This document shows, piece by piece, positions 6,651-31,080 of a stretch of DNA of 64,000 nucleotides; the first letter of the stretch is position 1; every line of letters begins with the position of its first letter. Below the pieces are notes generated by a model. It worked only from the letters and a program-made list of their open reading frames with translations. It made no database searches and had not been told where the DNA came from. The stretch is from Psilocybe cubensis (lineage: Eukaryota), in contig CM038998.1 of assembly GCA_017499595.2 (NCBI GenBank), forward strand, positions 620,001 to 684,000, in the 5' to 3' direction. Position numbers and translations under genes: made by a program.

Positions 6651-7019
6651 ACTAGCTGCCCGAATAAGGACAAGTTGTTAGTCCGCAACACAGAGCACGG
6701 TAGCTTGCCTGCACTGAATAGTTGGCAAATATTCAAGGAGGCTAGTCACAATGGCTGGAACTTGAGGAGAGAAGTATGAGTTAAAATATATTGCTACATC
6801 TGGCGTCAGACAATAACAGTGAGCCTGTAAAGTCTGATTTCTGATTGCCCTTCATCGTTCTACGTCACCCGTTCAAAGGTCACCTATTTAGATCGTCGAA
6901 TATCTCTCAGCTGTGAATCAAATAGGCTGAGATGAACGCTCTTGGTTATATTGCAAACAATTTATATGAAAACTGTTGCTTAAAGTACTAGTAAAGTCTT
7001 CCAAAATGATACAAAAAAA

Positions 7020-8781
7020 TCACACCAAACATTGCCTCTTAGCTTTAGGTTGCGCAGCACTGGCATCCCTCTCACGTCCTCCATCTTCTTCTGCCTCTTT
7101 TTCATCAACTTTGAGAGGGCGCTTACTCGCACTGGCGGAGAGTCCATCCATATAGTTCAGTCGAGAGCTAGTAACAACTTTGTTATTTGCCTTTTCGTTC
7201 TTATCTTTCTTGGAAAAGTTGTACACATCTTTCGCTGAGCACTGTGGCATTTCGAAGAAATCCGGTGGATACCGACTGATCCTAGCACGCTTCCATAACG
7301 CGGGGTAGACTGGTGGCTTGGAGTCATTGTTCGGTGACTCCAATGCGGTAGGCGTTATACCAAGTGGCTGCATGCCTTCAGCTTCACGTCGTAGAAAAGT
7401 CGAAAACCACTTGTCGTCCGGGCTATCCCAATCAACCGTCGAAACAGGAGCAGGGCGCCGCTCGATTTTCAAGCGTTCGCGTAATCCGCCCTTTTTGGGA
7501 GGTTCGTAGTAGCGAGGATGAAACTCTTGACCAATAGTGGCGAAGACATCGTGCAAGCGAGATATATTGAATTTGCCCAGCGCAATGTCGACTCTATGTA
7601 TGGAACAGGCCATGATGGTGCAAATTTTTTGGGATCCTCCAATAACCTCTTTGTTTTCGGTGATGGTCATATCATTAAAGAGCGAGTCCATCTGTTTGTG
7701 AAGTTGCTCAGGGCCATGGTCGTGACGAGTATACCGGAGGACTTGGTATACGAGAACCCAAAAGATGGACTCCATATCATCCCCTAGGGAATGCATGACG
7801 ACGGGCTGAGACGAACGCGCCTGCAAAATCCTCGCAGAAATAAAACCCCAAGTACCCTATTCATGTCGTTATTATAATCTAGAACGAAGAAATGCAACGA
7901 ATACTAACTGTCTTTTGCAAATGCTTTTCACGCTTCTCGAGGAGCAAACACATATCCCAGTCAATGAGAACTCCTCTCCATTCCTTTGTCTCCTTATCCA
8001 TCACGATCATAATATTACTCGCGCTAATGTCTCTGTGTAAAATGCCTGCCTTGAAGGCTGCTTGAGCGGCTGGAGCGTAACAGTAAGTACAAATCTACAA
8101 GGTTAACCAGAAAAGAACATACCATCAACAACATCCGCAAGACATGAAAGGAGAACCTTGCACCAAGTGAACGTCGACAAATCTCGAGCAACGGTATTGA
8201 GCACAAGACGATGGCAAACCATAAATCCAAATCCAAAACGCTTGAATCGTCCACTATGGTTGAGACTGCCCCACCATTCCTGCGTCTCAGTCTTCAAATC
8301 ATCAACATCATTGCCAAGGCGCATGGACGCAATATTCGGAACTCCGTGTTCGTGAAGCCTTCGATATATATCAGCTTCAGGCGCTGTCCGCGCCGAATCC
8401 TCCTGCCACGAATCCTTCATGAAGCACATTTTTCTCTCTGACTTGTCGGGATGATCTAAAAAGGCCAGTGATCGTCTAGAGCCGCGGGTGAAAGGATTGA
8501 TGACACTAGGCCTGTATGCAGGTGCTGGGACAAAAAATGCTTCGGTTTGATTTATAGCTGAATCATTGACAGTGACGCGATAGAAATTCGACTCTTTCGC
8601 GGGTCTCCGAGGCCTGCCGTTGACATCGTTCTTGCGATGGCTGAATTTTGCACCTTCATGCCAGGACCGCTCGTAATAATTATCAAAAGCACTCGCCACA
8701 TCATCAGGAAGCGTTTGGGTCGGAACCCGAATGGCATTGGTATCGAATCCTCTTTGGCGGAGTGACAGTTGTCCAAAGCGA
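7020..8781 (-). pseudogene. 3' half of a fungal-type protein kinase (FunK1, Pkinase_fungal) gene interrupted by the KDZ element. Exons ~8781-8123, 8069-7910, ~7856-7020
   Basis: Motifs RFGQLSLRQRGFDT, FMKDSW, PEADIYRRLHEHGVPNI, HRLVL, ILHRDISASNIMI, GVLIDWD, KTGTWGFIS and HSLGDDMESIFWV, joined by GT-AG introns. Confidence 0.9.
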
Positions 8782-8790
8782 TGAAACTCA

Positions 8791-9159
8791 CTGGACTTTG
8801 TTTAAACATCGGTCTATGACATAAAAGGGCCGTTTAATCCCACGTGGGGTTTAAACCATGTTCATTCAAGTCTCTCTAGTCTATTTTGAACCATGTACTA
8901 GTTAGCTCTGAAATCATATACGGTTGGTGTACAAAAAAGTAGTCTATTAAAACAAAAATGACATAGAGACAAAGTAAAGTTAGAAGCATTCATCGCTGTT
9001 TAAACACAATCGACAATTAAACAGTCCAAAAAATTAAGCAATGTTTAAATGAACTGGTAAAATTAAACAGCTACAAAGGAATAAACAATGTTGAAGACGA
9101 CAGAGAAGATTAAACAGCAACCACAATTAAACGCTCTTTAAACCTGCGATGGATTCAAC
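8791..9159 (+). repeat. Left subterminal inverted repeat (369 bp)
   Basis: CTGGACTTTGTTTAAACATCGG...CTGCGATGGATTCAAC is the reverse complement of 20325-20693, with 3 mismatches found by eye. Confidence 0.95.
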
Positions 9160-9211
9160 AATGTTTAAAACTAAGATACAAATAAACGATGTTAATTGGG
9201 GCGAGGTGGAT

Positions 9212-11174
9212 TCAAGATGGCTTTTCCGGAGACGAAACTGGCTCCATATACCAAGTGTCCCTAAGCTTGCGCTTTTTGGGTGGTGGAAGAGAAGGATCTG
9301 TGACAAGCGCAGGTCCCAATGCAGCTTGCGTGCGCGGGCGGCCCGTACGTCGTACAGCTACAGGTGGTCCCTCCGTCCTAACTCTCTTTTTGGGCTTCTT
9401 CTTCGGTTTGATAGTGGCAGTGCTTGCAGCTGTGGTGGTAATATCATCACCGGCACCCTGTTTTGCAGAGTGGCCCTCCTTGGAGGCCGGAGAGCCTGCC
9501 GCCGATGGTCCAATGACAGTTTGAGGAACATTAGAGGACACATCTGTGTGTTGCATTGGAGGAGAGCATGACGGAAGAGGAGTCATGGGCGATAGTGAAG
9601 AAAGCGATGCACGAGGTGGTGTTTTCGGAGGTGGTGTTGAAAAACTAGCAGCCTGGTCAGAGGTAGGTGGCAAAAGTGAAGGGCGAGATGGAGTCTTCGC
9701 AGGTGGTGTCAAAAAATGGGCAACGTTAGTCAATCTTGATGGTGAAGATAAAGTCCCCGAAGGTGATGCATCATCGTAAGAGGGCGAGTGAGAACTTGGA
9801 GAAGGTTGCAATTTCTGTAACTCTGCTTGGCGCTGATGCTGCGCTATGCGGTCTTTCGAATAAAATTTGAACGGCGTGGCATCAGGTAGCAAACGCAGAT
9901 ATTTGGTTAGAGCCAGAATTTCGTCGGGTTCTAGCACTTGCGGGGACTTTAAGGCGCCTATTGGTAAATTGAATGTCTCTGTGTCGTAGTACATATCAGG
10001 GTTGGAATAAATCGCATCCCAGGGGATGGTCGCATCGCCATCTTGAGTATAGTCTATCGCAAAGTAAGTCAGTAAGGTGTTTACAAATGCTCCAAGATTG
10101 ACCTACGCCAGAGAGACAGAAAATAATCTTCGAGAATTAGAGCTGCAGACGATAGCGGTTGACCTTTCAAGTCAATAAATGGCAAGAGAGGGCAGCCGTT
10201 GGTGTCTCGCAGCAACCTAGTGCTGAGTTGGAGTTCTTGCCCTACAAAGGTTTGTCAGTATATCACAAGTAAATGACGACTAAAAGAATACCACTCACGA
10301 GGAAGAACTGACTTGGCATGATTGTTCCAGCGTTCCAGTGAAGCTGTATCATACTCAAATTTGCCATCGTCTATCAAAGCTCCTTCGTTGCTGTCGAATG
10401 CCGCGCTGACTTTGCCTCCAAAAATGTTGCCGCCTTTGCGAAATGCATATGATAGGGATAATACACATGAGCCGAGCTGTCCGCCGGTGAGCAGTCCTTC
10501 GAGGGCTTCCTGAGCCACACTGTCAAACTCTGCTCGATTGCTGCGAAGCATCGTCAGAACGTATCCTAAACAAGCAACATTGACTTACGCATCAATATCA
10601 TCCCTCATATGTCTAACTTTTTCCTCCCAAGCCTTGTGATCTTCTTTCGACCACAGTTGTTGAATTGCAATTTGACGAGCAGCTCCTCCAGGTATTCCCC
10701 GTTCCTGACTGATTTGGCGGTATAACGCCACAATTCTATCGTTGTTTTCGACAACAAAGTGGTCTCGAGGGGTGGCATTTGAAGAGAGTTGGAGAAAAGG
10801 AGTCTTGGCCGTGGATATAGTAGGAGTTTTTTGTAAACCCTTTTTCCCTTGCTTGACCTTTATGTCGTAGTTGAAGTGATTTGTCCACACACGTACTATG
10901 GCCTGACACGAATTGTAAGTAAGTCATAAAGAGAATTCATTCTACATACCGATGACCACTGTTTGAGAGTCTCGGTCTCGGATAACTTGCCCGCAAAAAT
11001 CTCCTCGGCGAGTAGAGAGTTGACAGTTTTGGCTTTCCAGTCTGATAGCTGCTTGCAGTGACCGCGCCATTCAGGATCAAGCTCCGCAACCTTGGCTCTG
11101 AATGCAGGTATGTATTCCTTGATGCGCGCCATCTGGGCATCCGAGAAAACGAATCTGGTGGCTTTGGCAGGCAT
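9212..11174 (-). CDS. Cargo gene A: uncharacterised 5-exon protein with an HMG-box-like segment and a GxPxLP...PWD...FKF C-terminal domain
   Basis: Four GT-AG introns join ORFs 10896-11174, 10585-10890, 10255-10551, a short exon (QELQ...EDYFLSLW) and 9212-9994 in frame. HMG-like stretch PRDHFVVENNDRIVALY...IQQLWSKEDHKAWEEK; P/S-rich, basic tail. Confidence 0.75.
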
Positions 11175-11441
11175 GAAGTCAGTCTAGTAAGTATACGTTG
11201 TAAGAAGGATCAGAGGTAGGGTAGGGGTCTGTACATACATATATAATGAAAAGTTATGACACCCTGCGCTTTGCCAGTGGCCTGATTAATCTCGAAATGA
11301 CCAGTTGTGGCCCATAATTCAGTAATGAGAAACGTTCTGAAAAGAATAGTATTCATCAGTGAATGGCACAGGTGGCCCAAATAGCCACTCGTACCAGTGC
11401 CTTAGAAAGTACACAACGGATCTAAAGGGCCACCAAAGGAA

Positions 11442-11777
11442 GCACCTGACGCCAAGTCGAGGTTGCGAGACCGACACAGAGTAAGGGCGGTATTGAGAGC
11501 GATGGTGATGAGAAAGATGGGGGTGCTGAAGCAACCGACGCAGAGTCGAGGTTGCGAGACCGACACAGAGTCGAGGTCGAGCGATGGTGATGATAAAGAT
11601 GGGGGTGCTGAAGCAACCGACGCAGAGTCGAGGTTGCGAGACCGACACAGAGTCGAGGCCTCATGAGCATGAGTAGGTATGGGCGGTATTGAGAGCGATG
11701 GTGATGAGAAAGATGGGGGGTGCTGAAGCAACCGACGCATAGTCAAGGTTGCGAGACCGACGCCAAGTCGAGGCCTC
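11442..11777 (-). repeat. Bulged-hairpin cluster 1 (about 8 units) upstream of cargo gene A
   Basis: Minus-strand units such as GCAACC-TC-GAC-TCTGC-GTC-GGTTGC, GACC-TC-GAC-TCTGT-GTC-GGTC and GAGGCC-TC-GAC-TTGGC-GTC-GGTCTC, within larger tandem repeats. Confidence 0.85.
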
Positions 11778-12006
11778 ATGAACATGGTGGTTGAGTGGTG
11801 AGTGGCGGGATGAAGGGTCGCATTACCAAATCGGACTCAATCACGTGACCTGCACCCCCCAAGTCCAACTCAGAGTTGAACTTCGAGTCCGCTGTCTTTG
11901 CCCACTTTATTCCCCCTCTGCTTTTGCTCCTCATCGCCCGCCCTTCTTTTGCCCCCTTTATTATTAACTGTACAACCAGGTAAGTATTTAGATTTTTAAT
12001 TTTCTG

Positions 12007-12200
12007 TGGACTCGACTTAAGGTCGTCCATGTGAACTCGACTATGCGTCGTTCACTTATTTTTTCCGTTTACTTTTTATGGACTCGACTTTATGTCGTCC
12101 ATGTGAACTCGACTATGCGTCGTTCACTTATTACTTCCGTTTACTTTTTATGGACTCGACTTAATGTCGTCCATATGAACTCGACTATGCGTCGTTCATA
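12007..12200 (+). repeat. Bulged-hairpin cluster 2 (6 units in three ~72-bp tandem repeats) upstream of cargo gene B
   Basis: TGGAC-TC-GAC-TTAAG-GTC-GTCCA alternating with GTGAAC-TC-GAC-TATGC-GTC-GTTCAC. Confidence 0.9.
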
Positions 12201-12251
12201 CATTTTCCCCCGTCAATCCAATGGATAACCGACACCGGATCCAGCAGAAAA

Positions 12252-14439
12252 ATGTCTCGCTGTATCACCCCTGAAGACCTGCTTAAAGATCCATCGATCC
12301 TTCTTCGAAAGAAAGGCCATGATTCCTCCGAGGGTGAGTTTCTGTTCTACAATTTCCAGTCTTTTTATCTATACTTTACCAGGTCTTCGCAGTTTTGAAG
12401 GCCAAGTTGGAGCCGTAGTGTGGGAAGGAAGTCATTTCGTTACAAGCCCGAACATGGATCATATCTGGGAGCCCCCCAGAGTATCCCGGATTACTTACAT
12501 GGAGGATATGCGGTACGGAGAACACGATCCCCTTCAATGGCCCCAACCCTTCATTGGGAGTTTTTGCTATCTTGCCGCCATTCGTCGAAGGCCCGACGAT
12601 CTTCGTGCAATCAATCGATTTTTTATAGCGTTTTATCGCTTAGAAGATTCTGACTTACTTGCGCAAGAAGGGGTTCTTAGCGGACTGTATACCTTGACTC
12701 CCCGATTGGTCTCCCTAGCGAAGAACTTTGTACAAAACAGAGTTATTGCAAAATCGAAAGAATATGAAAGCCAGGATGATGCACCCAAAAACGACATCTT
12801 GTTGAAGCTCCAACCGTCAATCCTTCGAACAGTCAATCATCTCGAAAACCTCCCAATGACACGACGAAAAATAAAATTCTTATTTGCCGAACTACAAAGA
12901 TATTTTCTGGAATTTACAGCCGCCTTTGAATACCTGACAATCTATCTCCCCAGGATCAAAGGTACTATGCCAGCTGCCACGGCGGCTAATAAAAAACTCA
13001 TTGGTGCTTTTGTTCAAACTGCGGCGGATGCGGACGACCTTTTCCGAGCGGGTATTCCAGTGTGGGTGATTCGTGAGGCCAAATGGGCAGGGAATGACCG
13101 TGTAGATTCGTTGTGCGAGGTACAGAAACCACAGGATTATCTTTGTCTGGACAGTGCTTTTTTGCATTTTCCAGTGGATTATCGTGACTCGTTGACCAGC
13201 CCGAACAAGTATATCACTTTCGGTCGATTCGCACGAGGCTTTCTTTCATACGGGGATGCATATAACCTGCGAGCGTACGAAGCTCCCATTCCGCAATCGA
13301 CCGGTTCAGAGCAGACCTCGTCAACCTTTAAAATAGGTCCTAGAGTGGCCACGAGCCGCGAGATCAGAAAATCAAAACAGCCGTGTAAGTCGCAATTCGT
13401 TTGAACATGAAGAAATTGTACCTCATTTATTACGATTATAGATCCTATACCACAGAGGCAGGATTTCTCAGAGCCGGTTAGTGTCTACTTACCACCATCT
13501 CAAGAAGCATGGGCCTCGGGGCTTTGCAAAATCAACACTGATGCCAAGAGGTCGCTCCTGGTCTCTCGTTCTATGGCTCAAGGTGGATACATTCTGCCTA
13601 ACCCTGAAGCCTTTATCGGAGTAACGACAAGCAACAAGCGCGAGTTATACATCACAAACTGGCTGAAGTACCGCTCGGCCCTCATGTATTGCCTTACAGA
13701 AAGCCAGGGACGGTGTCCGCTGAGTAGTCAACTGTGGCGAGATCTACTCAGACTCCCTGTGGATGCTCTCCCGTCTACCATAACTCAACCAGCCGCCACG
13801 GCATCGTCGTCGACAAGCACCCGAACATCTAGTAAAAGTTCTCAAAGGGGTGAGATTCTACAAAGAATTTTCGAAAACTTTGACTTTCATGCATCCGGAG
13901 TTGCAGTCAATGGTCACGAACACCAGGTCACGTGGCGAGGTCAAGCTCTGATAAAGGGCCAAGAACTGGATATAAACCTAGTACGAGAGGTGCTCTGGGA
14001 GTTATCAGAGCTCAACTTTCGGTTTGATCTCATTGCGTTGGACCATCATCTTTATCGTAGGACCCTCAAGGTTGAAAGAGAAGGCCAAATTCTCCAGTCT
14101 CGTGAAGACGATATTCTCCTTTGTTTCGCAGGTGGGCCCTTGGGCACATCTCCATTTCTCGCACACATCGCCAATGCGGATATCGGCATTGCCGCTGGTG
14201 ATTGGATGGTTCGTCGCGCATACATCATATACCTGCGGAATGCCATGCGAGACTGGGAGGGTTTTGACTCCGCGGCCAAGCAGTGCCATGAAGTAGATCT
14301 GTTCACCAGATCTTCGGATATTTTATCTTTTGCGGAACACCAATATTTGCTCTTTGAGGTTGTACTGGTCCGACTTTTTATTCAGCTTTTCTATGATGCA
14401 TTTGGTCGTGCGCCCGTCATACCACGTCGATTACATTGA
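12252..14439 (+). CDS. Cargo gene B: uncharacterised ~693-aa protein. Exons 12252-12333, 12383-13384, 13442-14439
   Basis: Splices in frame without stops. Motifs VTSPN, RYGEHDPLQWPQPF, AGIPVWVIR, LPPSQEAWASGL, LWELSELNFRFDLIALD and FGRAPVIP recall a repetitive agaricomycete family of unknown function. Confidence 0.8.
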
Positions 14440-14712
14440 ACTTGTACTGTTATTGTAGCTAATTTTCTTGAATTTTTTGGACCTTACAAGTTTTTCAATA
14501 TATGTATTACCTTTTTTATCTCTATAAACATCAAGCTGTTGATTTTGGACTCAAATCCCAATCAATAATGTCTAAATAAGGCCGATCGAATATTTGTTAG
14601 AATGTTGATTGAATTTCGTCCATGACCAAAATCGGAACAAAAGCGGAGTTTCAATTTTGAAATCCCTCGTTGCCATGTCGTTCCACTTTTCGTTCTCATC
14701 ATTTTCCACATT

Positions 14713-15131
14713 GACCTCGACTGTGTGTCGGTCGTGTAGGCTTGACTGTGCGTCGCCTACTGTCTGCTCTTCTCGTCATACTTGCTCTTCTCGCCATACT
14801 CGGGCGCTCCTCATCCTGGGTCCTGTCCTTCCGCCTTTCTCTCTGGTACCCCTGGCCATTGGTTTTCAAACATCCCCTTGACCTCGACTTTGTGTCGGTC
14901 GTATAGGCTCGACTTTGCGTCGCCTAACATCCCCTTGACCTCGACTGTGCGTCGGTCGTGTAGGCTTGACTGAGCGTTGCCTACTGTCTGCTCTTCTCGC
15001 CATACTCGGGCGCTCCTCATCCTGTGTCCTGTCCTTCCGCCTTTCTCTCTGGTACCCCTGGCCATTGGTCTTCAAACATCCCCTTGACCTCGACTATGTG
15101 TCGGTCGTATAGGCTTGACTTTGCGTCGCCT
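14713..15131 (+). repeat. Bulged-hairpin cluster 3 (8 units) upstream of cargo gene C
   Basis: GACC-TC-GAC-TGTGT-GTC-GGTC paired with (G)TAGGC-TT/TC-GAC-TGTGC-GTC-GCCTA(C), four pairs, interleaved with a duplicated ~110-bp block. Confidence 0.9.
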
Positions 15132-15387
15132 GCTACCTACCTTTCTCAAACAGGAACTCGGCGCCTTTCTCCGCAAACTTCTCCAAATGGCCAGGCCACG
15201 CTTTGTCGGTGGCCGCGACTCTTCAATCTTGGCGCAAACTTGGCGCAAACTTCTCTAGTTGGTTAGGCCACGATTCGTCGGTGGCCACTATTCTTCAATA
15301 TTATGCAGTGGCATGATGGGAGGGGTATACGGACACGCAGGTGCGTGTTTAAATTCAAAGACACACTGGCCATCCCACTAATTCTTT

Positions 15388-16612
15388 ATGCCTCCAGCTC
15401 CTCCTCCTGCATCGTTTGGACCTCTCTCTGGTGCGCATCCTGAGTACCGGGGGATCTACAAAACCGCTGCTTTGGAGAAAGTGAAACAAAACATCAAACT
15501 CTTTCTGTTACAACACACCAAAAACCCAGGACCGCAGAAACCTCACAAGCCTGACCATCCTGAATCTAGACCCCAACTTTGTTTCGGGGGTGGATCCCAT
15601 CGCGCTAATGCTGGACGGTGGCTTCAAGTTTGCCAGAAGCAATCGTGCTATATGCATCAACGACCGCGGTTTGTTACCGAACCTTTATCACCAGAGGTTT
15701 TGTCTGGACTTGATGCCCTGTTTGCCATTCAAGATGAAATTCATGCGTATATGCCACGTACCATGACATCAGCTAACAACCCAGTTGCTCGACCATGTGT
15801 TGCTTCACCATCATCTTCCTTGCCCCCTTCGTCTGCACCCAGCGCGTCCCCTGCCTTGTCCCCTTCGCCTGCGCTTAGCTCGTCTCCTTGTAGGCGCAAT
15901 AGGGCTGTACCGGCTGTTTTCTCCACACCCACATCACAACCCTCTTCCTCCAAGCGTCGTCTGTCGCCACCGCCTTTTGCATCAACTTCACAAGCTTCAT
16001 CCTCCAAGCGTCGTCTGTCGCCACCGCCTTTCACACCAACTTCGCAAGCTTCATCCTCCAAGCGTCCTCTTTTGCCATTGCCTGAGCCTGACTGTGTTTC
16101 CCCTTTCAAACGACGTAAAATTCTTGATGTATTGGATGAGCTACCACCACCTAACGTGCCTCAAGGTATAGACGAGGCGGAAATACGGCGCCGAATCAAT
16201 ATCTTGCTTGATGCCCTTGAACCTGCGGCTGCGCCAACTAGCCCCCCAGTAGCACCTCCTGCACGGTCTCCCTCCACGCCTGAAGCAGTAGACGAGGCAG
16301 AGATATTTGACCTTACTCGACCGGTTCTTGTTTTATTTATGTTGCAGGTTGGGTTATTGCTTTATTGTTTTATAATTCAATGCTAATTCATTGGAATAGG
16401 ATCATAGTCAATTTGAAGAAACCCTTTACCCGCGCCATGATGGTCGCCTCTGTCTGAACGACTACAAGCTTCTTCTAGGACGCCAGGGGTTTGAACAAGG
16501 TTTATACATTGAGTATTTTTGCTTCAACACAGATGAATGGACCCCTTGTCTGTGGGCCACCCGGCACCTGATCTCAGGCCACGATCAAATTTTGCGATTC
16601 CGTTATGCATAG
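15388..16612 (+). CDS. Cargo gene C: ~390-aa protein with a GRF-zinc-finger-like N-terminal motif, S/P-rich linker and small C-terminal domain. Exons 15388-16347, 16400-16612
   Basis: HKPDH...LCFGGGSHRANAGRWLQVCQKQSC...RFVT; repeats SSSKRRLSPPPF; exon 2 DHSQFEETLYP...LRFRYA* is in frame. Confidence 0.7.
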
Positions 16613-16857
16613 TGGCCAGAACTTAGAATATAATGAATATATCTGCTTTTACAAATTCCCTTGGTGACACGATTAATTCTGCCGATTCCTTATTATAGGC
16701 GTATGCTTGGCCACCAATGCCCAAGCAAAATGTATTGACTGAGTGGTGGCATGACCACAAAATTGCCGATTGTGGCACTTCGGGATGTAGGATGGCATAC
16801 ATCAACTGAAAGTACAATAAACCTTTCCTCTTTGCCAATATTTTGCCCCCACCCGTC

Positions 16858-19800
16858 ATGAAGCTAACCGCCAAAACACTTTTGAAGCACCGCGCGCAAC
16901 AAGAAGCCGAAAACGAGAGCCCTAAACGCCTCCGACCCACTGCACCTCATCTCACGGAATATACCTGTCAAAATTCAACTTCTATTACCCATACAACTAT
17001 TCTTGCCGACAACGGACATATACCTTCTCTGCAGTCCAAGGAGAAGGTTGAGGCCAAATTACCTCCCAGTGTCTCGGAACCTCCGGCTAAGCCTTCGGAG
17101 GTTGGTTGTTTTCACTTTGGAATTTTCCTGGTGCAACGTTGCTAATTAATATTGTGCACAGCTTACCGAGGAGCTTCAAGCATTCCAGGATAACAAAGAC
17201 GAACTTTTAGACTATCTTTTTGAGCGAGAACACCATCCTCTCATTGGAACACCCTGCCAATGTGGTCAGGGAACACGTTTAGTCTGCTGCACGGAATGTC
17301 TGGGACACAATGCCACTTGTCGTCTCTGCTTTATCGCCGCTCATCTCTCAATGCCATGCCACTGGGCTTTGGTTTGGCAAGAAGGGGAACACGGTGGATT
17401 CTTTGTGAAGCGAGACATATCGCAACTTATTCCAGGTGGCAATTTTGCCATCCCTCTTGGTCATGGAGGTCTTCGGTGTCCGGGCCCAGAAACCGAAGAA
17501 GAAAACGTGTTCTTCCAGATAATTGACCACAATGGTGTTCACGATACTCGCGTGCACTTCTGTACATGCCTTGGCCGGCCAAATCGTGTACGGCAACTCA
17601 TCCAGTTCGGTTTTTTCCCTGCGACACTCAAACAGCCAAAAATGGCATTCACACTCACAGTCCTCAAGCAATTCCACCTGCACCATCTTGAATCAAAGGA
17701 ATCAGCTTACGATTTTATTGGGGCTCTTCGGCGGCTGACCGATAACATGTTTGCAGCCAGTACCACCAATCCTTATCCCCAATTTCTACGGGTAATGCGC
17801 TTTTGGCGTGTTTTGATTGCTACAAAACGTCTGGGTCAAGCCCACGGTATTGACCAGTTGCTTCCTCATCGGCCACCAGGCAATCTGCTTGTGTTTTGTC
17901 CGGCTTGCCCCGAGGCCGGGCTTAATATGGAGAAGAATTGGGACCAGACACCTAAGGAATTCAGTCATTTAAACCAGATGCAACTTACCCTCGACGGAAA
18001 TTTTCACGCCAACAGATACAACAAAAATAGTTCTGATGACGATTATTCATTATATGAAGGACGTGCCTACTATCCCACTGATTCCGATTTTAAATCTTAT
18101 CTGCGTTCTTTACCTGCTCAAGACATTGCCGACAAGATTGATTGCCCTATCAAAGCTGTGAAGAATCGCAATCTTGTTATGGAGAATCTTTCGGAGACGG
18201 GTATAATCAATGTTCAGTGCCCACATGTCATAGTTGTGTCAACTGTGGATCTTCAACGTGGTGAAAGATTTGCTAACACAGATTATGCTGTGGCCCTGGC
18301 GCTCCGCCGGATTAGAGACACAGGAAAGAACAACAGTGACCAGTATCTTACCTGGCTGGCAGCGTGGATATCGTATGACATGGTGTGCTCTTACTGGGTG
18401 AACATTGTGTCACGTTTCAAAGTCTACTTCCCTGATCTGGTCGAAATTGTCAAACGTCTTTCGTTTTTAATTCCCCTTGTTCATGTTCATAATCACAAAG
18501 AGAATTGTGAATACCTTTATTCATCTGCGTATCAATCAGGCGCGGGACATTTCCATGGCGAAACAGCAGAACACGAATGGGTTGAACTTAATCAATTGGC
18601 ACCCCAAGTCCGTCAAATGAACAATGGCCATCGTCAAGACACCCTGATTGACCACCACGGGGATTGGAATTTCAAGAAAATGGCGAATATGGCCTCGTCG
18701 CTAGAGACAGACATTGTCCATTCCCGGAAGATTTTTCACAAAAAACGCGATGACTTTATTGCAAAGACAGCGCTGTATTCGGATCGTGCCCCGTTATGGA
18801 ATTGCCTTGATCGTGAACTGAGAACGGTTAGCGCAGACAAAGAGATTCAGTGCGTATTCCGACACAAGACAGGAAAAGGTGAGCGATAATCAGCTCGATA
18901 TTTAACATATCTCATTCTTGCAGTTCCTTCTCAGGCCAAAATATACGAAGGATTGGTTGACAGATTGAAGAAATTGGCCGACAAATCAGACAACACATTT
19001 TTGAATATGGAAAGTTCTGTACGTCTAATCAATGAGGGCATTATCATTGAACGAAAACAGTATGTGGTTTATATGTCCATTTATAAGCATCTCATGAGTA
19101 AGATAGACAGGAGTTGGCGTCAAAATTAGCATCTGAGGAATATCCCATGGCTCCGAAGGAAATGCTCAGTCGTCGTACCAAGCTAGCCAAACTTATCAAA
19201 GGATGGAAGACTCTGCAGCAGGATGTCATGGGCACTGCTCTGTGTAGTGTGGAAACTTCGTCAATTGATAAACCAGAATGCACAAAACTCTATCTTCCAT
19301 CTTCATTCTCGGCTACTGATCGTGCAAAATATGATCTGGAAGGTCTTGCGGCAGACGAGCTTCTCTTACGGAAAGGAAATATCTTTGATACCATTCGCAA
19401 CATTCAAGATACATCGAAAACACTATCCTCGATGCGTACTGAGAGGCAACAAAACGACCGTGGACAGACTGCTCGGACACGGTCAAAGTCGAAATTAGAA
19501 GATGTAGAACGCCTTCTAAGCCTGCAAATCCACATATATAATCTCTGTCGGCAAGCTCTTGTGTCCCTAGGCGGTGATGAATACTCCAGCATGTTCCCAG
19601 AAATGACTGTAGCCGACACGTACTGGGTACCTACCCATCTTCGACGTGAAATTGGTACGTCAAGAAAGTCAGATGGTCGGATATTCAACCCGGGTATTAC
19701 TGGCGGGGCGCAAGGGAGAGCTCCGGGTGTGTCTAATTATCTTGAGTCCACCATGGATGTGATACAAACACAAGGGTCCAAACCCAAACCTAGGAACGAC

Positions 19801-20346
19801 AAAAAGTTGGGCAAAGACAAGAAAGGCACTAATCGTGGTTCTGGCATATCTCCCCCCAAAAACGATGAAAAGGTCAAGAAAGATGGATGGATTTGGTCGC
19901 TTGCGGAGCTAGTGAACTTGACGCCTGAAGATATCGAGGCCTGGTCCGATGAAAGTGATCGGGTCAAATGGTTTCGTGCAGAAGCTGAAATGCGACGTTG
20001 GCAAGAAGAGAACGAAATCAACCAAGCACAATTTTTACGATGCATCCGTTCATTCCACGTAATGTCCAAGCACTGGACACAACTGGCGAAGATGAATGCT
20101 ACTGACCCCGGCCGTGTGGCATATGCAAAAAAAATGTCGGCTCGGTTTTCTCGGTTGGAAAGTGATGCGAAAGAGCGCCTTGTGCGAGCAGGATATCGAG
20201 AACTGGTGGATAACTACACTGGCGAGAATGCTCCGCTTCTCAGTGAGCATATGGCCGCTAACCGAACCGCAATGTACGCACCAATTTCCGACCTTCTGGT
20301 TTCATTTTCCACAACCCCATCTTCGTTGAATCCATCGCAGGTTTAA
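16858..20346 (+). CDS. CxC2-KDZ transposase, ~1111 aa. Exons 16858-17100, 17162-18878, 18924-19059, 19107-20346
   Basis: Cys cluster CQC...CTEC...CRLC...H...PCHW and HFCTC...QLIQFGFFPAT...AFT; CPACP; KDZ core LDGNFH, CPH...DLQRGERFANTDY, SYDMVC, IPLVHVHNHKENC, GAGHFHGETAEHEW; later WIW and VKWFRAEAEMRRWQEE. Exon lengths sum to 3336 nt, open. Confidence 0.92.
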
Positions 20347-20693
20347 AGAGCGTTTAATTGTGGTTGCTGTTTAATCTTCTCTGTCGTCTTCAACATTGTT
20401 TATTCCTTTGTAGCTGTTTAATTTTACCAGTTCATTTAAACATTGCTTAATTTTTTGGACTGTTTAATTGTCGATTGTGTTTAAACAGCGATGAATGCTT
20501 CTAACTTTACTTTGTCTCTATGTCATTTTTGTTTTAATAGACTACTTTTTTGTACACCAACCGTATATGATTTCAGAGCTAACTAGTACATGGGTCAAAA
20601 TAGACTAAAGAGACTTGCATGAACATGGTTTAAACCCCACGTGGGATTAAACGGCCCTTTTATGTCATAGACCGATGTTTAAACAAAGTCCAG
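20325..20693 (-). repeat. Right subterminal inverted repeat (369 bp); contains the transposase ORF stop
   Basis: Reverse complement of 8791-9159. Confidence 0.95.
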
Positions 20694-20703
20694 GGGGTTA
20701 CGG

Positions 20704-21983
20704 CAAAGCGAAGGTAGAACCCAAAGATCAAGTTTGGTCGCTCGATGTAGCTGAATCGGGTGCTAACAACGGCGCCTCGACGGTCCCATCGCATGAACCG
20801 CGCGAATTCCCCTAGAATCAACAAGGAAAAGAAATGGGACCTGAACGACATAGACATCGCTACACCAGCATAGGCGGCAATTTGACCACGCGTACGGATC
20901 GCACGCTGTGTATCTTTCTCGACTTCAGGGACCAGAGCGCGAGAGCCCGCAGATTGTGTGGAAGTGCCGGCGGTATTGACCAGGGGAGGTTGTTCGACAT
21001 CCTCTTTCCACTCGTGCTGAGAATCCTTTGACGGGGCGTGTTTAGCACCCTCTTCAGAGCTTTCAGAATCTCCTTTTTTGTTGACAACGCTGAGAGAGCT
21101 AGCACGCTTGTCTGCATTTCCGGCCCCATTTCCGGTGCTATTAGCACTGCTAGTAGAAATGGAAGAATCCCAACAACCAATAACGTCCATGAACGGGTAT
21201 TTGTTGTTTAGTAGTTCATTGTTAACGTGGTCGTGCTGAGAATCCTTTGGCGGCGCGTGTTCAGCACTCTCTTCAGAAACATCACCGAGATCTTCGTTGA
21301 AGGTTTCAGCATCTCCTGCAATTTCATCAACAACGTCGAGAGAACTAGGGGGCTTGTCTGCCTCCTCGGCACCTTTTTGAGAGGCGAGTTCAGCGCTAGC
21401 AGAGTTGGAAGGATCTTGGTCACCAGTAGCGTTCTCGTTGGGGTTCTCGGTGTTCGGTTTTTCATCGTTAACATGGGCAAATGCGTCGTACGTGTGGTCA
21501 ACTCTAAACTCTTCGTGTGTTTGTTGAAGAGAAAATGCGCATGAACCCTTCGAAGGTACGGATGGAAAATCTGATTGCCAATACGTAGACACGCCCACAT
21601 TCAATGACGCGCAATCAACATCGGGCTTTTTGAAGTGCGCAAACCGCAATTTCTGACTGTTGTCAATTCCAGTGACCCAGTCATCCAAAGCGTCGACCTG
21701 CCAAAAAAGTTTTAGTATAGCCTTCGTTATCAGACAAAGGTCTTACATAGTGCTTATACATAGAACGTTCTGGATGTCTTGCGCCATTGACTGGCGGTAC
21801 AGATTTGAGGTTGTTTTCTCTAGTTTCGCTTACAACTTGTTGTTGATAATGTGTTGGTGTGTTCTCGTCCCAGGGAAGAAAGTTGTCTAAGAATTCGAGT
21901 GGGTCCATCCCAACGAGATAGTGACCTCTGGTCTCATTTGCGATTTGAGCATACGCTTCGTCTGGCACTGGTGCCTGGCTCAT
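20704..21983 (-). pseudogene. 5' half of the interrupted FunK1 kinase gene. Exons 21983-21747 and 21697-20704
   Basis: HYLVGMDPLEFLDNFLP, KPDV, TRGQIAAYAGVAMSMSFRSHFFSLLILGEFARFMRWDRRGAVVSTRFSY...FGFYLRF are typical FunK1 N-terminal motifs. Confidence 0.9.
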
Positions 21984-23289
21984 GGCGGCCTGGATTTGGG
22001 TAGTAGATTTAACAGAGAGAGCGGTATTTCTTGAACAGGAGGTGGATTTCGGTCGATAGGAGTGACTGGTGCGGCAGTATCAAATTTAATCACCACATGC
22101 AGTGTTAAATAATCCATGGCCAAATATGGAAAACTTATTTACGTTTTGGCCAAATACGTGAAGGATATTGAATAAACTACTATATTTAGAAGGTAGACGA
22201 AAATAAATTTCACATAAATCGCAACAAATTATTTAACCGTGCACGTAGTAAAAAGCGACATGGTATCTCTATGGCATGATTGTCTGCTACGGGGGATATA
22301 TACTAATAGTCATTCCGTTGAAAATCGTTCGTAACCAATTAATATATTTCCACGCTCACGAAAACATATGTACAATCGGACTCAATTGCCAAGATACAAC
22401 TTGAACGTCCCATTAAGTTTACAATGCAAGAAGATTTTCCGACGGTGGTCGGCTGACAGTAGGGGCACTGTGTTCTGGAGAGGAATTCAGCTCATTTAAG
22501 TTTGCTTAGTAGTATTTCCCCTTTCCGCAATCATTCCAAGGGCATTGGCAGTTTAGAACAATAGCCCAACCTTATCCGAATCTGACCTCCAGTGGGTAGC
22601 TTTGCTATAGGAACTTAGATGAAGGTACATATAACAACTATATTTTCTTAAATTACATAGACACACTGTCATAAACATACACCTCGCGTTATGTTTTTTT
22701 AGTTCAATTTCTTGAATTCAAGCGGCCTTACTCTACGCGTTCGATACGCGTCCAATATTGCTTCCACGTGACCGGGACCATGGTTTAGGAGAGAATCAGC
22801 AATGAGAGCGACGTTAGCTTGAGCAAATATGGTTGCGAATGTTAGGTTGAGGGTCCAACAAGTGACCACACGCTTCAAGTAGGCTGAAAACTTGATTTTG
22901 ACTTAAGGGCCCCTTGCAAGCGGTCCGTACTTGATAGCTGAGTGGACACAAATTTGGCATCCTGCCCTTCGCCTCGTTTAGTCTTACCCGACTGCCACTA
23001 GAATATAGATGTTTAGTTGAGTTTAGTATCGCTTTGCAGGGCGTAGTGCAGAATAGCATCAACTTCATATGGCCCACCACACCCGACACTAGATGAAGAA
23101 TAAGAAATAGCCCAGAAAGACTGTGACTGTTGAATTTGAATACCCATAACGGTATCATCTTGTCTTGCGATCGATCTATATTGCGCACTCGTTGTTTTCG
23201 TGAAGTGGGTCCAAGCGATTGACAATACCAGTAAGTAAAGGCTGACCATGGCCACAGGAGCAAAGATGGATGGGGGTGCCACTCAGAAA

Positions 23290-23904: not shown

Positions 23905-24846
23905 AAAGATTTAGAGCCTTACACGACGTTGTTTTCCTGACGTTCAGATCCGAGTCCATTTCCTCTTTCAACTCTCAATCTTCGTAAAATCCTAGCACAA
24001 TAAATTGATGTATTACTTGTTGTTTTTCTTAATTCTGGGGTAGTCTCATCGCTTGATGTTACATAGTCTCACCTGAGATCTCATGTGCGAAAGCTCAGCT
24101 CGGTTACAAAATCGATCGTAGTCCAAATTGATTCCTGGAGGTAACGGCAGAAAAATGAATCCGACATGGCAAAAATGGACTGGCGTAAAAAATCTCTGAC
24201 TTGGCTGACGACACAGCTCGCCGAAACCTCCATCCATATGATGTATCTGGTGTGCCCGTGACAACCTAATTGCGTGTTGTCATAGCCATCTTGCACCGTC
24301 GCCTCACAAAAGCAATTGGCGAGAGGTGAAATGAATTATACCGAGATATCTCCAGAGACAAGCTCGAATACCTATATCGATGCACCCTGGGGTTGGAAAG
24401 ACAAGCTCCAACCGTTATCTATGGTGGACTTGGTGAATTGGCACAAAGAATAGATCCCATCAAGGTGTACCCATGTGAAATTGTTCCAATGAGTTTAACG
24501 TCTTCATTTGAACGAATTATATTTCTACAAAAGTTCAGTTTCATAGAACGTAATTCAGGTCGTATTCCAGAACTGTCAACGAGTCCTTTGAATTTTAATT
24601 AATAAAACGTGCTCAACTCGTGCGTATCTATATATCATAATGGCACGTTGACTCCGACGCTTTCATTCGGATGTTTTCACGATTAAAAGTGGGTCAGAAG
24701 TCAGTTGCTTCAAGTTCTCTTAACGACAGCTTATGGACGTTTAAGTTTTTTTTAACTCGCGATAAACGTCGAACGGACCTACGCAATATATCCATCCGAC
24801 CGTCGCATATTCCTTATGTACAGTGGTAGAAGTATGTCCGAGAATT

Positions 24847-24897
24847 ACCCCGAAATCTGGGGTCGAGCTTGGGACTAGCGTTTGGAGGCGTATAAAA
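24847..24897 (+). promoter_or_regulatory. GH6 copy 1 core promoter: inverted CCCCG/CTGGGG pair (CreA/Cre1-like SYGGRG) and TATA box
   Basis: ACCCCGAAATCTGGGGT at 24847-24863, TATAAAA at 24891; conserved in the paralog's promoter. Confidence 0.5.
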
Positions 24898-25006
24898 TGG
24901 TGTCTGGGAGGTTTTTTGCCCTTACTATTCTACTTCATCTTCATCTACTTCTTTTGTGTCATCGTCGCTCCTTTTTCAACTGTTCTCCAGCCTCTTCAAA
25001 CTTGTT

Positions 25007-26314
25007 ATGCATTATCTACATTCACTAGCTTGCGCTTTGGCGCTTGCTCCCTCTGTTGCGTTTGCTGCACCTGCCTCGTCAGGCTTCCTGGAGAATCCGT
25101 ACATCGGCAAGGAAGCATACGCAAACCAGGAATACGCGAATAAACTGGAAGAAACCATCCAGTATTTTAACGAATTAAATGACGACCTTAATGCGGCAAG
25201 GACGAGGACAGTCCAGAAAATCCCTACCTTTGCTTGGATATCGGCTTCATCAGACGTAAGCTTTTATATATTATGCAAAGAATATTTATAATGGTCCTTT
25301 GGTTTCTAGGTCGACAAAATAGAGGGTCTTGTCCAGGAAACTCTCGCCGCTCAGATAGAGACAAAAAAGCAGCAGATTCTGCAACTCGTGGTTTATAACT
25401 TGCCTGACCGCGACTGCTCCGCCGGCGCTTCTGACGGGGAGTTCAAACTCGATGAAGATGGCCTCAGCAAGTACAAAAATTACATTGACAGTACGTATTC
25501 GCAGCCTTTCAATTTTGCTAGGCTGATTCCCATGACCATACTAGCTATTGCCAATGAACTGAGCACCCCCGATGCTGAAAAGATCAACTTTGTTGTCATC
25601 CTTGAACCTGACTCGCTCGCAAATGTTGTTACCAGCCTGGGCGTTCCCAGCTGCGCAAAAGCTGCCCCTGCCTACAAAGAGGGAATCTCGTACGCCATTG
25701 CGAAACTCCAGCTCCCTAATCTCTCCATCTACATCGACGCTGCTAACGGAGGCTGGCTCGGCTGGGACGAGAACCTCAAACCTACCGCCACCTTGCTCGC
25801 CGAAATCCTCCAGAGGGCTCAGGAGATCAAAGCTGGATCCACAGTCCGCGGCGTCGCTATCAACGTCTCCAACTTCAACGAATACCTCGCCCTCGTCCGC
25901 GAGAATTTTACGGAGCTGTCAAATAGCTGGGATGAAAGTCACTATGCCCAGTCACTTGCGCCACACCTCGAGGAAGCCGGCTTCCCCGCTCACTTCATCG
26001 TCGACCAGACGCGCGCGGGCAGGGGCGGCATCCGCACCGAATGGGGCCAGTGGTGTAACGTACGAGGCGCAGGCTTCGGTACACGCCCGACGGCGGACCA
26101 GGCGGTGCTGCAGAATCCGTATGTGGACGCTATTGTGTGGGTTAAGCCTGGAGGCGAGTCTGATGGTACGTCGGATCGCAATGCTTCCCGTTTTGCTGAG
26201 ACTTGCGCGGGGCCGGTGGCGCATGTCCCTGCGCCTGAAGCTGGGTCATGGTTCAACGAGTACGCTGCAAATTTGGTTATGTTGGCCAACCCTGAGTTAG
26301 AACCAACGTTCTAG
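25007..26314 (+). CDS. Secreted GH6 cellulase (cellobiohydrolase II family) without CBM1. Exons 25007-25255, 25310-25490, 25545-26314
   Basis: Signal peptide followed directly by NPYIGK; GH6 motifs VYNLPDRDC, ILEPDSL, YIDAANGGWLGW, WGQWCN, VWVKPGGESDG, PAPEAGSWF. Confidence 0.95.
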
Positions 26315-27340: not shown

Positions 27341-28259
27341 TGCAATGATAACTGTATTGCGGTGGCAACCTGTTGTCTCAATATGTCAATTGGGAAAAGT
27401 GTTTTGCACCAGATATACTGGTGCGATAGATCCCACATGTACATTGCTCATTTGCAAGTTTGTACCGAGACCAACCAAAAGCGCAATGAACATCGTGGAG
27501 GTCCGCTAGAATGGAAGAATGGAGTCATAAAGCCTAGAGCGTCAACACGTTTCTTCGCCTTTTTCTCACGGTGCATCCAAACTCCGCTAGCGCTCCGGAC
27601 TCAGTGCCGCGGGCCGACCCTTTAGCAGGGACCAACTGGGCACCCCACCGGGACAGTTGAGATTTCTATCCCACCCCGCATCACATCCTATAATGCTTTC
27701 TCCACGAGGTCACAACAATTTCGCGCATGCCTATCTCTAGGCCCGAGAAGGGCCACTCAATCAATATTAATCTGCTGGATTATCGAGCCGCATCATTCAG
27801 GCAGGCAAGAGATCAATTGGGTTGGGACACCAGCGCTAGGGTGGCAGGAAGCGTCTGGAATATTGGAGAGCAAGGTCTTAAGTAGGTGGCCCTCTTTCTT
27901 ACCACACTTCTCACTCTGCTGCGCCATATTTCACTCGCTCCTCGCTGCCATCAAGTTGCCGGTCAAGCAAACTTGATCCTGTTGGGTCCCGTGAATCTGT
28001 GCGCATGGGTAGTAGGCAAGTTGAAATCTTCTCTACCCATTATCCTACTCATATATACCCTAGGGTGGACCTTTCTCGAACAACACAGGCGACGGAAATG
28101 TTGGCACGGCGCAGAACGACATTCAGGCCTCAATCAGGGATCGAATAGCGACGCTTGGGCCATCGAGGGGATCACGAGCGAAGCAGGCAGCAAATTGGGT
28201 TGACGTCCTTCCTTCCTTACCCTTTCCGCGCGTATAGCTACTTTGCCATCCATTACCTC

Positions 28260-31080
28260 TATTGACCCACAGCGCAGAGTATCAGACGAGGAATCCCATT
28301 TGCAGCACCCCAATCCGACCCACTGCGTATACCTCTCGCCGTGGGAAACGCTTCAACAAAAGGCACCAAAGTAGTAATTCTCTCTTGACTTCCCACTTCT
28401 GCGCAGTAGACTACATAACACTATCCTGCCCTTTCCTTGCCCAAACCCTCTCTGTTTTTTCCCCCATCTTTATGCGGATAGCTACATTGGCGTCTATTAG
28501 TCCTATTCACCCACGGCTGCAGCGTTAAGTTAGGATTCCGAACGAAGCACCCCCAATCAATCATCAACATCTGGCCGACAAGCTCAAGCCGCTGTCTACA
28601 ATCAAGATGGGTCTCCGTCGTTGTCAATTTCGTGCAGTCGACTTGAAGAAGCTGCGCACCCACAATTCATCGATCAGCCGCGAGGCTGAGGCTGAGACTG
28701 GAGGCGACACTAGCGGGCCCTCTCCTTGCGCAAAGGCTGACTTTTTGGCCCCATTCCTACGCGGCTAGCTACATTGACGTCTTTTAGTCCTATTCATCTG
28801 CATGCGGCAGTATTATTCAAGGAATTCCAATTGCAGCGCCCCGATTCAACAATCAATGTAGTCCCTTGCCGTGGGAACTCGTGGTACCAAGGAAGCAAGC
28901 AGCACAGTGAGTCGACCTCTCGTTTTACCATTCTATCCTCACGCGAATATGTAGATTGACGGAGAACATATCTATGCACCCACATCCTAGAGGGATAGAC
29001 GAAGAAGCAGATTTGAAGCATCCAAAATCGGTGGCACCAGTTTTCCGCCATTGTCAATCTCGTATCATCGACTCGAAGAAGCTGCGCACCCACAATTCAT
29101 CCCCGGAGACTGAGGCTGAGGCTCGACGCGGCACTAGCTACTGGAAGCCCTCTCCTTGCGCAAAACCTCTCTTCTCACCTCATTTCCAGGCGGATAGCTA
29201 TATTGACGTCTATCACCAGCCGATACTAGTAGCTTCCCAGCCAGCCCCTGCGCTTTTAACTGTGCGATACAAAAACCCGATGCTGAAGAGTGTGAATCTA
29301 GTTGACAAGCCGCTGTTCACAGTCAAGCTCGTTTGCTGCCGTCGTTATTGACATGAAGAAGCTGCGCACCCACAATTCATCGATCAGCCGCGGAGGCTGA
29401 GGCTGAGGCTCGAGGCGACACTATCCAGCCGCCTCCTTGCGCAAAGGCTCCCTTTTTGCGCCTCATTTTTATGCGGCTAGCTACATTGACGTCTATCACC
29501 TCTACTTATCCACACCCCAGAGTCTCATGCAGAGAATCCAAAATGTTGCGCCCCAATTAACCCTCAATGTTAACCTTGTGCCGTGGGAACCTATCGTACC
29601 GAGGAAGAAGGCAGCACAGTGAGTTTGACCTCTCATTTTTCCACTATATTTTTACGGGGATATGTAGATTGACAGAGGTTATATCTATAGACCCACAGCC
29701 CAGAGGGATAGACAACGAATTCGAATTGAAAGACCCGAAATCCCCTCGGTCACCTGTGCCATATAAAACCCCCGAGGCACAAGAGCGTACCGCACTGCAT
29801 AGGTCATCGTTGCCATTGAAGATATCGATATCGTCTGGTGGAGAAGCTCAAGACGCTGTCGACAATCAACATGCTTTTCCGACGTTTTCGATCTCGTGTG
29901 GTCGACTTGAAGAAGCTGCATACCCACAATTCATCGATCAGCCGCGGAGGGTGAGGCTCGATGCGACACTAGCCGGTCCTTTCCTTGCGCAAGCCCTCTC
30001 TTTTTTTATCCAATTTTTACGCGGCTAGCTACATTGACGTCTAACATCACTATTAACCCACAGCCCAGCGTACTATCCAAGGAATCCAAATTTTAACATC
30101 CCAAATCCACCCTCAATGTTAACCTTGTGCCGTGGGAACTTATGGTACCGAGGAAGAAGACAGCATAGTGAGTTGGACCTCTCGATTTTCCACTTTCTTT
30201 TCACGGGAATATGTAGATCGACAGAGAACATACCTATGCATCCACAGCCCAGAGGGATAGACGAAGAATTCGAATTTCAGGACCCACAATTAACTCTCGG
30301 GCACCTGTGCCATATAAAACCCCCGAGGCTCAAGCGCGTACCGCACTTTGACGTTTCGTTTTTTTCACTCTGTCTTCACGCGAATATGTAGACTGACGGA
30401 GGTTATATCTGTGCATCCACAGCCTAGAGGGATAGACGAAGAGCCCGATTTGAAGGACCTGAATTTGACCTTCCTCGGTCACCCCGTCCGCGTCAACCGC
30501 TGCGCGCTCAACTACGCCATATAAAGCCCCCGAGTCTCAAATGTGTACCGCACTGCATCCGGGTCATCGTCGCCATTGGGGATATCAATGTCGTCCAGTC
30601 GAGAACCTCAAGCCGCTGTCTACAATCAAGATGCTTTTCAGCCGTTTCCGATTTCGTATGTCCGACTCGAAGAAGCTGTGCACCCACAATTCATCGATCA
30701 TCCACGGAGGCTGAGGCTGAGGCATGAGGCCTTGAGGCTCGATGCGGCACTAGCCACTGGCAGCCCTCTCCTTGCGCAAAGCCTCTCTTTTCACGTCAGT
30801 TTAACGCGGAGAGGTATATTGACGTCTATGACCTGCAGATATAGCTTCCCAGCCAGCCGCTGCTCCTTTTCTCATTCAACTGTGCCATACAAAAGGCCCA
30901 AGTCCCTCAAGAGTGTGCGTCTACTCGACAAGCCGGTGTCCAAAATCAAGATGTCAAGCCTGTTTGCTGCGTTTGTCATTGACATGAAGAAGCTGCACAC
31001 ACACAGTTCATCCGCGGAGGCTCAGGCCCAGGCTCAGGCTCGATGCGACACCATCCAGCCTTCTCCTTGCCTAAAGCTCA
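28260..31080 (+). repeat. Degenerate complex tandem array containing repeated intron-like segments
   Basis: About six copies of GAAGAAGCTGCGCACCCACAATTCATC...GAGGCTGAGGCTCGA...CTCCTTGCGCAAA (near 28645, 29075, 29355, 29910, 30670, 30985) and 3-4 copies of CCGTGGGAAC...GTGAGT...ATGTAG...AGAGGGATAGAC. Confidence 0.85.

Follow-up and report, generated by a model that had tools for sequence, protein, structure and literature searches.

Base-precise transposons of the KDZ (Kyakuja-Dileera-Zisupton) class have been described in fungi. Two reports on Cryptococcus neoformans (10.1101/2024.08.15.608186; 10.1101/2025.05.19.654958) characterize KDZ1-3 as elements of 9-11 kb with terminal inverted repeats (TIRs) of 139-241 bp, a CxC1+KDZ transposase, and extra open reading frames (ORFs) without known domains. 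In the same texts, KDZ1 has an 8-bp target-site duplication and KDZ2 and KDZ3 have duplications of 4-8 bp, transposition into drug-target genes was seen in the laboratory, and the three elements are placed in the Dileera clade. Kojima 2025 (PMC12730594) gives Kyakuja ends a 7-bp duplication and 5'-CA..TG-3' termini with no TIRs, and quotes an 8-bp duplication for Zisupton and Dileera. CxC4 + SWIM, the architecture of Cryptococcus KDZx1, is quoted as Zisupton-type in a bioRxiv report, and in Pleurotus every intact KDZ gene is reported to be preceded by CxC2. Here we analyze a 64,000-nt stretch of the Psilocybe cubensis genome (GCA_017499595.2, contig CM038998.1, positions 620,001 to 684,000; hereafter the window), in which a FunK1 kinase gene is interrupted. 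We propose, with a probability of roughly 0.9, that the interruption is a full-length, probably autonomous cut-and-paste KDZ transposon of the CxC2 type, a common one in Agaricales, inserted in a coding exon of the kinase within its Pkinase_fungal domain (Table 1).

The element adds a clearly delimited new member to a known class, and a literature search on P. cubensis transposons returned no paper on it by title or abstract. An initial annotation, made from the DNA alone, had described fungal KDZ elements as mostly known from protein domains; Cryptococcus KDZ1-3 and the elements of Kojima 2025 make that description out of date.

The interrupted kinase and the KDZ transposase

On the minus strand, the N-terminal half of the kinase ends ...RPNLIFGFYLRF (...LIFGFYLRF) and then enters the element, and the C-terminal half reads ...RFGQLSLRQRGFDTNAIRV (also given as ...RFGQLSLRQRGFDT). 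Deleting 11,930 bp preserves the kinase frame, with a joined reading of ...FGFYLRFGQLSLRQRGFDT..., and this continuity, claimed by the initial annotation, holds as stated, the same residues being present in two relatives. The first is an uninterrupted paralogue on the same 4.68-Mb contig (JR316_0000131; P0125), which is 86% identical to the C-terminal half and reads ...LIFGFYLRFGQLSLRQRGFDT..., including FGFYLRFGQLSLRQRGFDT. The second is a protein of P. cyanescens (P0126) that reads ...FTFYLRFGQLSLPQRGFDT... and is also unbroken across the junction. Thus the outcome that the initial annotation had allowed for, that related kinases do not align over the junction, was not what we found. In a tblastn comparison, residues 123-409 of P0125 fall on 21697-20702 and residues 405-944 on 8786-7032, the few overlapping residues representing the duplicated target. 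The C-terminal half is 100% identical to P. cubensis JR316_0000172. Pkinase_fungal (PF17667) matches P0002 at 1.4e-07 and, across the junction, P0125 at 1.7e-36 and P0126 at 2.4e-38. Given that the match in P0126 spans residues 282-651 and the junction lies near 340-343, the element is inside the kinase domain. Both kinase halves had been called open; this is mostly so, the extreme 5' end being the exception, where the frame changes relative to the paralogue near 22013-22025.

The assignment to the KDZ class comes from the transposase gene. The proposed Pfam check recovered Pkinase_fungal in the kinase and, in the ORF at 17150-18889, KDZ (PF18758) at 1.4e-46 over profile positions 2-217 of 217 and CxC2 at 1.7e-29, with weaker matches of CxC1 (2.9e-08) and CxC3 (2e-4) on the CxC2 stretch. 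The whole transposase protein matches KDZ at 4.3e-46, and CxC4 and SWIM are absent from the Pfam matches at E up to 1. Homologues of about 970-1160 aa from Agrocybe, Pholiota, Mycena, Coprinopsis and others align end to end over 16858-20346 except for two short introns, one of which contains the apparent stop in the transposase frame, and the annotated protein JR316_0000175 matches the window. All invariant columns of a 40-sequence alignment are kept (E449, Y486, D487, C490, H522, H526, C530, and E548), a C/H cluster among them. PDB sequence and profile searches with the transposase gave nothing below E 0.4. The gene extends into the right inverted repeat, and its stop codon comes 20 nt into the repeat.

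Empty site, termini and target-site duplication

Four public runs (X1, X6, X9, and X11) of the 12 listed were compared with window positions 7000-22500; run X6 bears another species label. The empty site, for which the initial annotation had suggested read mapping, was found as DNA in two of these four runs. A joint 8773->20704, which skips 11,930 bp with 8 ambiguous bases, occurs in X11 raw reads (7 reads with 6 starts, the shorter side covering 37 nt) and in a single X9 contig, where the shorter side is only 20 nt, and it was not seen in X1 or X6. The same data contain copies of the element at other loci. Sequence from X9, X6, and X11 (10 reads) follows the element to exactly 20703 and then continues into three different flanks, and on the left side foreign flanks join at 8781 (X6) and 8780 (X1). 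Copies elsewhere therefore share the boundaries seen here, a point on which the initial annotation could have failed. We also find a second copy in the same annotated genome, on a 2.56-Mb contig, with the same gene order (JR316_0012746, 0012747, and 0012749) and a transposase that is 98% identical (1040/1063) with a changed C-terminus. An internally deleted copy is present in X9 (joint 9740->17077), and the depth of X11 over the element is about 0.7 of flank depth. The empty-site joint and the varied flanks together demonstrate that an unoccupied allele exists, that the sites of the family differ among isolates, and that the ends are confirmed externally.

Cut-and-paste elements excise, and this family is mobile, so the unoccupied allele could in principle be the product of a precise excision and not the ancestral state. 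We regard this as improbable. DDE elements usually leave the duplication or a scar behind when they excise, whereas the joint removes the element and one repeat copy exactly, with no footprint, and restores residues that are conserved in the paralogue and in P. cyanescens.

We made several side observations on the copies in other runs. Nine reads of X11 skip 45 bp in frame at window 18032-18078, at the start of the KDZ domain (DGNFH region), so that at least one copy there has a 15-codon deletion. In the kinase 3' exon, X11 and X6 have loose ends at 7723, 7890/7896, and 8008, and the depth of X11 is raised over 7000-8033, which suggests rearranged or extra kinase-like copies in other isolates. 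Farther upstream in the kinase, window 22013-22097 combines the frame change with small indel differences between runs at 22084-22097, and may represent a second lesion or, alternatively, sequence that is variable or of low quality.

The repeat finder reported inverted arms at 8785-9159 and 20325-20699 (375 nt, 99% complementary) as the strongest inverted repeat of the window. In a gapless comparison from 8781 and 20703, the arms are 379 nt long with 8 mismatches, 5 of them in the outermost 10 nt and 3 (8866, 8876, and 8890) in the other 369; the earlier count of about 3 differences in 369 positions was exact, and the outer 10 nt add the remainder. The element begins and ends 5'-ATGAAAC...GTTACGG-3', and these asymmetric ends are also present in other copies. 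TTAAAC/GTTTAA motifs are concentrated in the two arms (27 of 49 window sites), as are those of TTTAAAC (17 of 23, with 10.6 expected for the whole window). An Rfam search of the window had no match, and an exact 22-nt stretch of the ends had 0 matches in metagenome contigs. The right end at 20703 is fixed by the three other-locus flanks from X9, X6, and X11 and by the conserved GGTTACRG terminus of related loci described below, and for the left end at 8781 the basis is the register of the ends together with the matches in X6 and X1.

The initial annotation had claimed an 8-bp target-site duplication. Its flanking repeat is real, with eight identical bases, CAAAGCGA, at both 8774-8781 and 20704-20711, although the length of the duplication is 7 or 8 bp and the family copies favor 7. 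In X6, the only other copy with both flanks shown, TCCTTCA is common to the two sides and is followed by A on the left, a base already aligned to the window, and by G on the right, so 7 bases are shared. The X1 contig from another locus matches the window at 8781 and 8780. On balance we lean towards a duplication of 7 bp and an element that would start at 8781, because an A at 8781 in three independent copies needs chance if this base is target. If A8781 is instead the first base of the element, the eighth match in the window becomes a one-in-four coincidence, and with this start both arms have 379 nt in one register, ATGAAAC aligning with CCGTAAC of the other end. We give a somewhat lower probability to an element at 8782-20703 with CAAAGCGA as its duplication, whose 8 bp would equal the length in Zisupton and Cryptococcus KDZ1. 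This solution uses all eight identical bases of the window, agrees with the 8-bp duplications that Zisupton, Dileera, and KDZ1 make, and can take the sole mismatch of X6 (A versus G) as a transition, C>T/G>A change being heavy in that copy. Moreover, the 4-8 bp of KDZ2 and KDZ3 imply that the length may vary within a family, in which case both lengths are possible in one. It is at odds, however, with the X6 and X1 copies, whose match at 8781 (in X1 also at 8780) is expected if A8781 belongs to the element, with the 7 bases shared by the X6 flanks, and with the common register of the arms.

A number of observations weigh against a simple insertion of a KDZ element at this site. The flanks share 8 identical bases in the window and 7 in X6. 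The outer 10 nt differ between the ends at 5 positions, which is unusual for a TIR element, and two complete metagenomic elements (L031 and L036) are without a clean duplication next to both ends. The frame change of the kinase near 22013-22025 means that a second lesion or an assembly indel may exist. Lastly, among the 24 pieces listed for the four runs (148 others lie beyond the listing), none crosses 8781 or 20703 into kinase flank, which leaves the window assembly as the sole source for the occupied state. The occupied site might accordingly be an artefact in which the assembler joined the kinase flanks to a copy located elsewhere, and it fits such an error that X1 element contigs differ from the window by 0.3-0.8% when the X1 flank contig is identical. 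We nevertheless consider an artefact very unlikely. An assembler would not make a two-sided target duplication in a frame-preserving register within an exon, and both element ends adjoin kinase sequence.

Taken together, the Pfam matches, the relatives that read through, the 11,930-bp skip, and the shared termini uphold the core claim of a KDZ element inserted in a FunK1 kinase exon, and the traits of the class are all present: the KDZ domain PF18758, an N-terminal CxC domain, TIRs with a short duplication, and mobility. We propose that the 1111-aa transposase would recognize the TTAAAC-studded 379-nt ends and cut the element out. The element would then be joined to a staggered 7- or 8-bp target cut, the repair of which would produce the flanking duplication. 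Catalysis, binding of the TTAAAC repeats, autonomy, and the roles of genes A to C are predictions.

On the time scale of the species, the insertion is young, as other isolates keep the empty site and carry copies elsewhere. The family moved recently, as its copies at other loci terminate at identical bases. The initial annotation had also called the insertion recent. The site polymorphism supports that claim, but the near-identity of the arms, which had been noted with it, does not, because both arms travel with a cut-and-paste element and their similarity is no guide to insertion age. Recency follows instead from polymorphism of the site, from a duplication and genes that are intact, and from the one-directional C>T/G>A differences of the other copies. 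Relative to the window, the X6 copy has 127 C>T and 125 G>A differences (252) versus 17 T>C and 10 A>G (27), and in the transposase of the second genomic copy over half of the 23 substitutions fit C>T/G>A by a reading of the aligned residues. A pattern of this kind resembles the outcome of a RIP-like process or of methylation-linked deamination in the other copies, and suggests that the window copy may be close to the active form of the family.

Table 1. Features of the KDZ element and the interrupted kinase gene (window positions)
Feature	Positions	Strand	Basis or remarks
Kinase 3' half (FunK1, Pkinase_fungal)	7020..8780	-	Pfam, paralogue alignment
Left target-site duplication copy, CAAAGCG	8774..8780	.	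7 bp; 8 bp if A8781 is target
Whole KDZ element	8781..20703	+	11,923 bp; 11,922 bp if the start is 8782
Left terminal inverted repeat	8781..9159	+	379 nt; 14 TTAAAC/GTTTAA motifs in 8781-9200
Gene A	9212..11174	-	No Pfam family; Ser/Pro-rich C-terminal part, basic KKRK-type stretches
A-B intergenic repeat arrays	11408..12211	.	11 CGAC-N5-GTCG motifs
Gene B, JR316_0000173, 693 aa	12252..14439	+	Large family without Pfam or PDB relatives
B-C intergenic repeat arrays	14711..15155	.	5 CGAC-N5-GTCG motifs, in inverted orientation to those at 11530-11773
Gene C ORF, 334 codons stop to stop	15382..16386	+	Pro/Ser-rich; 54-bp coding tandem repeat
CxC2+KDZ transposase gene, JR316_0000175, 1111 aa, four exons	16858..20346	+	Pfam, homologue alignment
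Right terminal inverted repeat	20325..20703	-	379 nt, end ...GGTTACGG; 13 TTAAAC/GTTTAA motifs in 20285-20703
Right target-site duplication copy, CAAAGCG	20704..20710	.	
Kinase 5' half (FunK1)	20704..22081	-	Paralogue alignment

Genes A to C and related elements

As had been claimed, all four internal genes are open, provided that short introns are assumed, and three of the four match annotated P. cubensis proteins at about 100%. Pfam has no family for genes A, B, and C, nor for 15 relatives of gene B (0/15), and PDB sequence and profile searches with genes A and B gave nothing below E 0.4. The family of gene B nevertheless comprises 935 clusters at E up to 1e-3. In an Atlas comparison, the only matches of P0124 and P0292 were basidiomycete clusters without a name (score 0.94) or rows at chance level (0.76, with a model pLDDT of 0.29). 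No internal ORF matches Tet_JBP in Pfam, although a distant relative of the PE type is conceivable, and for gene B, a role as a 2-oxoglutarate dioxygenase was considered and is argued against by an N-terminal alignment without an invariant histidine. In gene C, the copy number of the 54-bp coding repeat (window 15924-16087) varies, with 54-bp skips in X1 and X6.

To the left of the element, the reference annotation runs gene A into the kinase. Both JR316_0000172 (P0124) and an alternative UniRef model (P0294) splice gene A over the left repeat onto the kinase 3' half (window 9233-8792, minus strand). Gene A of the second genomic copy (P0293), like the ORF of the window, has its natural end at ...YMEPVSSPEKPS. 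JR316_0000172 appears to be a wrong fusion of an element gene with half of a kinase. The fused models may be an artefact of annotation or may reflect a chimeric transcript that truly arises by read-through.

To compare the element with relatives, metagenome contigs were scanned with a 12-sequence transposase alignment, which yielded 58 related loci. Of these, 17 extend at least 3 kb upstream, and 11 of the 17 have an ORF resembling gene A there on the opposite strand, so that gene A looks like a core, conserved divergent partner of the transposase, and two fused gene models hint at the same linkage. In contrast to gene A, sequence like gene B was found in 0 of the 58 loci, which makes gene B look like cargo, and sequence like the N-terminal part of gene C in 4 of the 58. 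From this distribution, related elements in other fungi would have a core of two genes in common, the plus-strand transposase and the minus-strand gene A; gene B is probably acquired cargo, and gene C, like gene B, looks like a later addition. The terminus is conserved as well. In 7 of the 58 loci the scan found GGTTACRG after at least four TTAAAC/GTTTAA motifs within 300 nt, and two contigs end exactly there. Reading of L015, L036, and L037 gave the same terminus, L037 being the L036 element with a different flank.

L031 and L036 are the only loci among the 58 that held both ends, and each was set aside as a source for the duplication. L031 has no flanking repeat. L036 has the 8-mer GCAGAGTA on both sides, but relative to the end that L037 defines the 8-mer is shifted by one base, and it overlaps with bases also present at the left end of L031. 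Both may be chimeric assemblies of multi-copy elements.

Gene B is flanked by arrays of the motif CGAC-N5-GTCG, which account for 16 of its 18 matches in the window (0.66 expected), and the outer arrays are mutually inverted. The arrangement is as if gene B had perhaps arrived in its own small repeat-bounded insert. The arrays were rejected as a trait of the family, with 1 match in 367,976 nt of related loci.

Elsewhere in the window, we find a large degenerate inverted duplication (24187-26314 and 35332-37458) with arms of about 2.1 kb that are 75-86% alike and contain glycosyl hydrolase family 6 genes (25310-26314: Glyco_hydro_6 9.5e-98). The roughly 9 kb between the arms hold homeodomain ORFs (32017-33627) and a repeat-rich part (28200-31100).

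Comparison with known systems

For CxC2, the commonest KDZ type in mushroom genomes, the locus provides a reference copy resolved to the base, and its ends, duplication, and gene content can be used to annotate the many "CxC2-like cysteine cluster" proteins that are now filed as hypothetical. It also brings to light an apparent annotation error, in which the reference has one half of a kinase joined to a transposon gene in a single chimeric protein. The family varies among isolates of P. cubensis, so it can serve as a strain marker, and this polymorphism suggests ongoing activity. Both gene A and the terminus are conserved, and offer testable leads on end recognition by KDZ elements. A broader proposal, which we put forward only tentatively, is that agaric elements of the CxC2 type might form a structurally distinct KDZ subgroup with long TTAAAC-studded ends, a CCGTAAC/GGTTACRG terminus, and an obligatory divergent gene A. 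In such a subgroup, gene A might be an end-binding or nuclear-targeting factor like TnpA of CACTA elements, the P. cubensis member might be currently active, and gene B might have entered through a repeat-bounded insert.

CACTA/En-Spm and PIF/Harbinger elements have a transposase, a second conserved protein, and many short subterminal repeats. The element described here is like them in pairing its transposase with a second conserved element protein and in having short repeats in its ends, and unlike them in its transposase, the families being unrelated. By analogy, we hypothesize that gene A may bind the ends.

Among KDZ elements, fish Zisupton resembles the element in its KDZ-class transposase, its TIRs and, if the start at 8782 is right, its 8-bp duplication, whereas the CxC4 + SWIM of the Zisupton type have no counterpart here. 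Kyakuja-1_LB and Kyakuja-2_LB of Laccaria bicolor and the TET-carrying Kyakuja are likewise agaricomycete KDZ elements, and their 7-bp duplication would match the likelier reading of ours. They differ in their CA..TG termini, the lack of TIRs, and a TET/JBP dioxygenase, in place of which we find 379-nt TIRs, ATGAAAC...GTTACGG ends, and no Tet_JBP match. With respect to Cryptococcus KDZ1-3, the differences are that CxC1 is found there and CxC2 is the best match here, that the TIRs here reach 379 nt, that the duplication is 7 or 8 bp, that the host is an agaric, and that mobility is deduced from population polymorphism only. In their general design, the P. cubensis element and KDZ1-3 are alike: all are large fungal KDZ elements with long TIRs, short duplications, a CxC+KDZ transposase, and extra ORFs, and all insert into coding genes.

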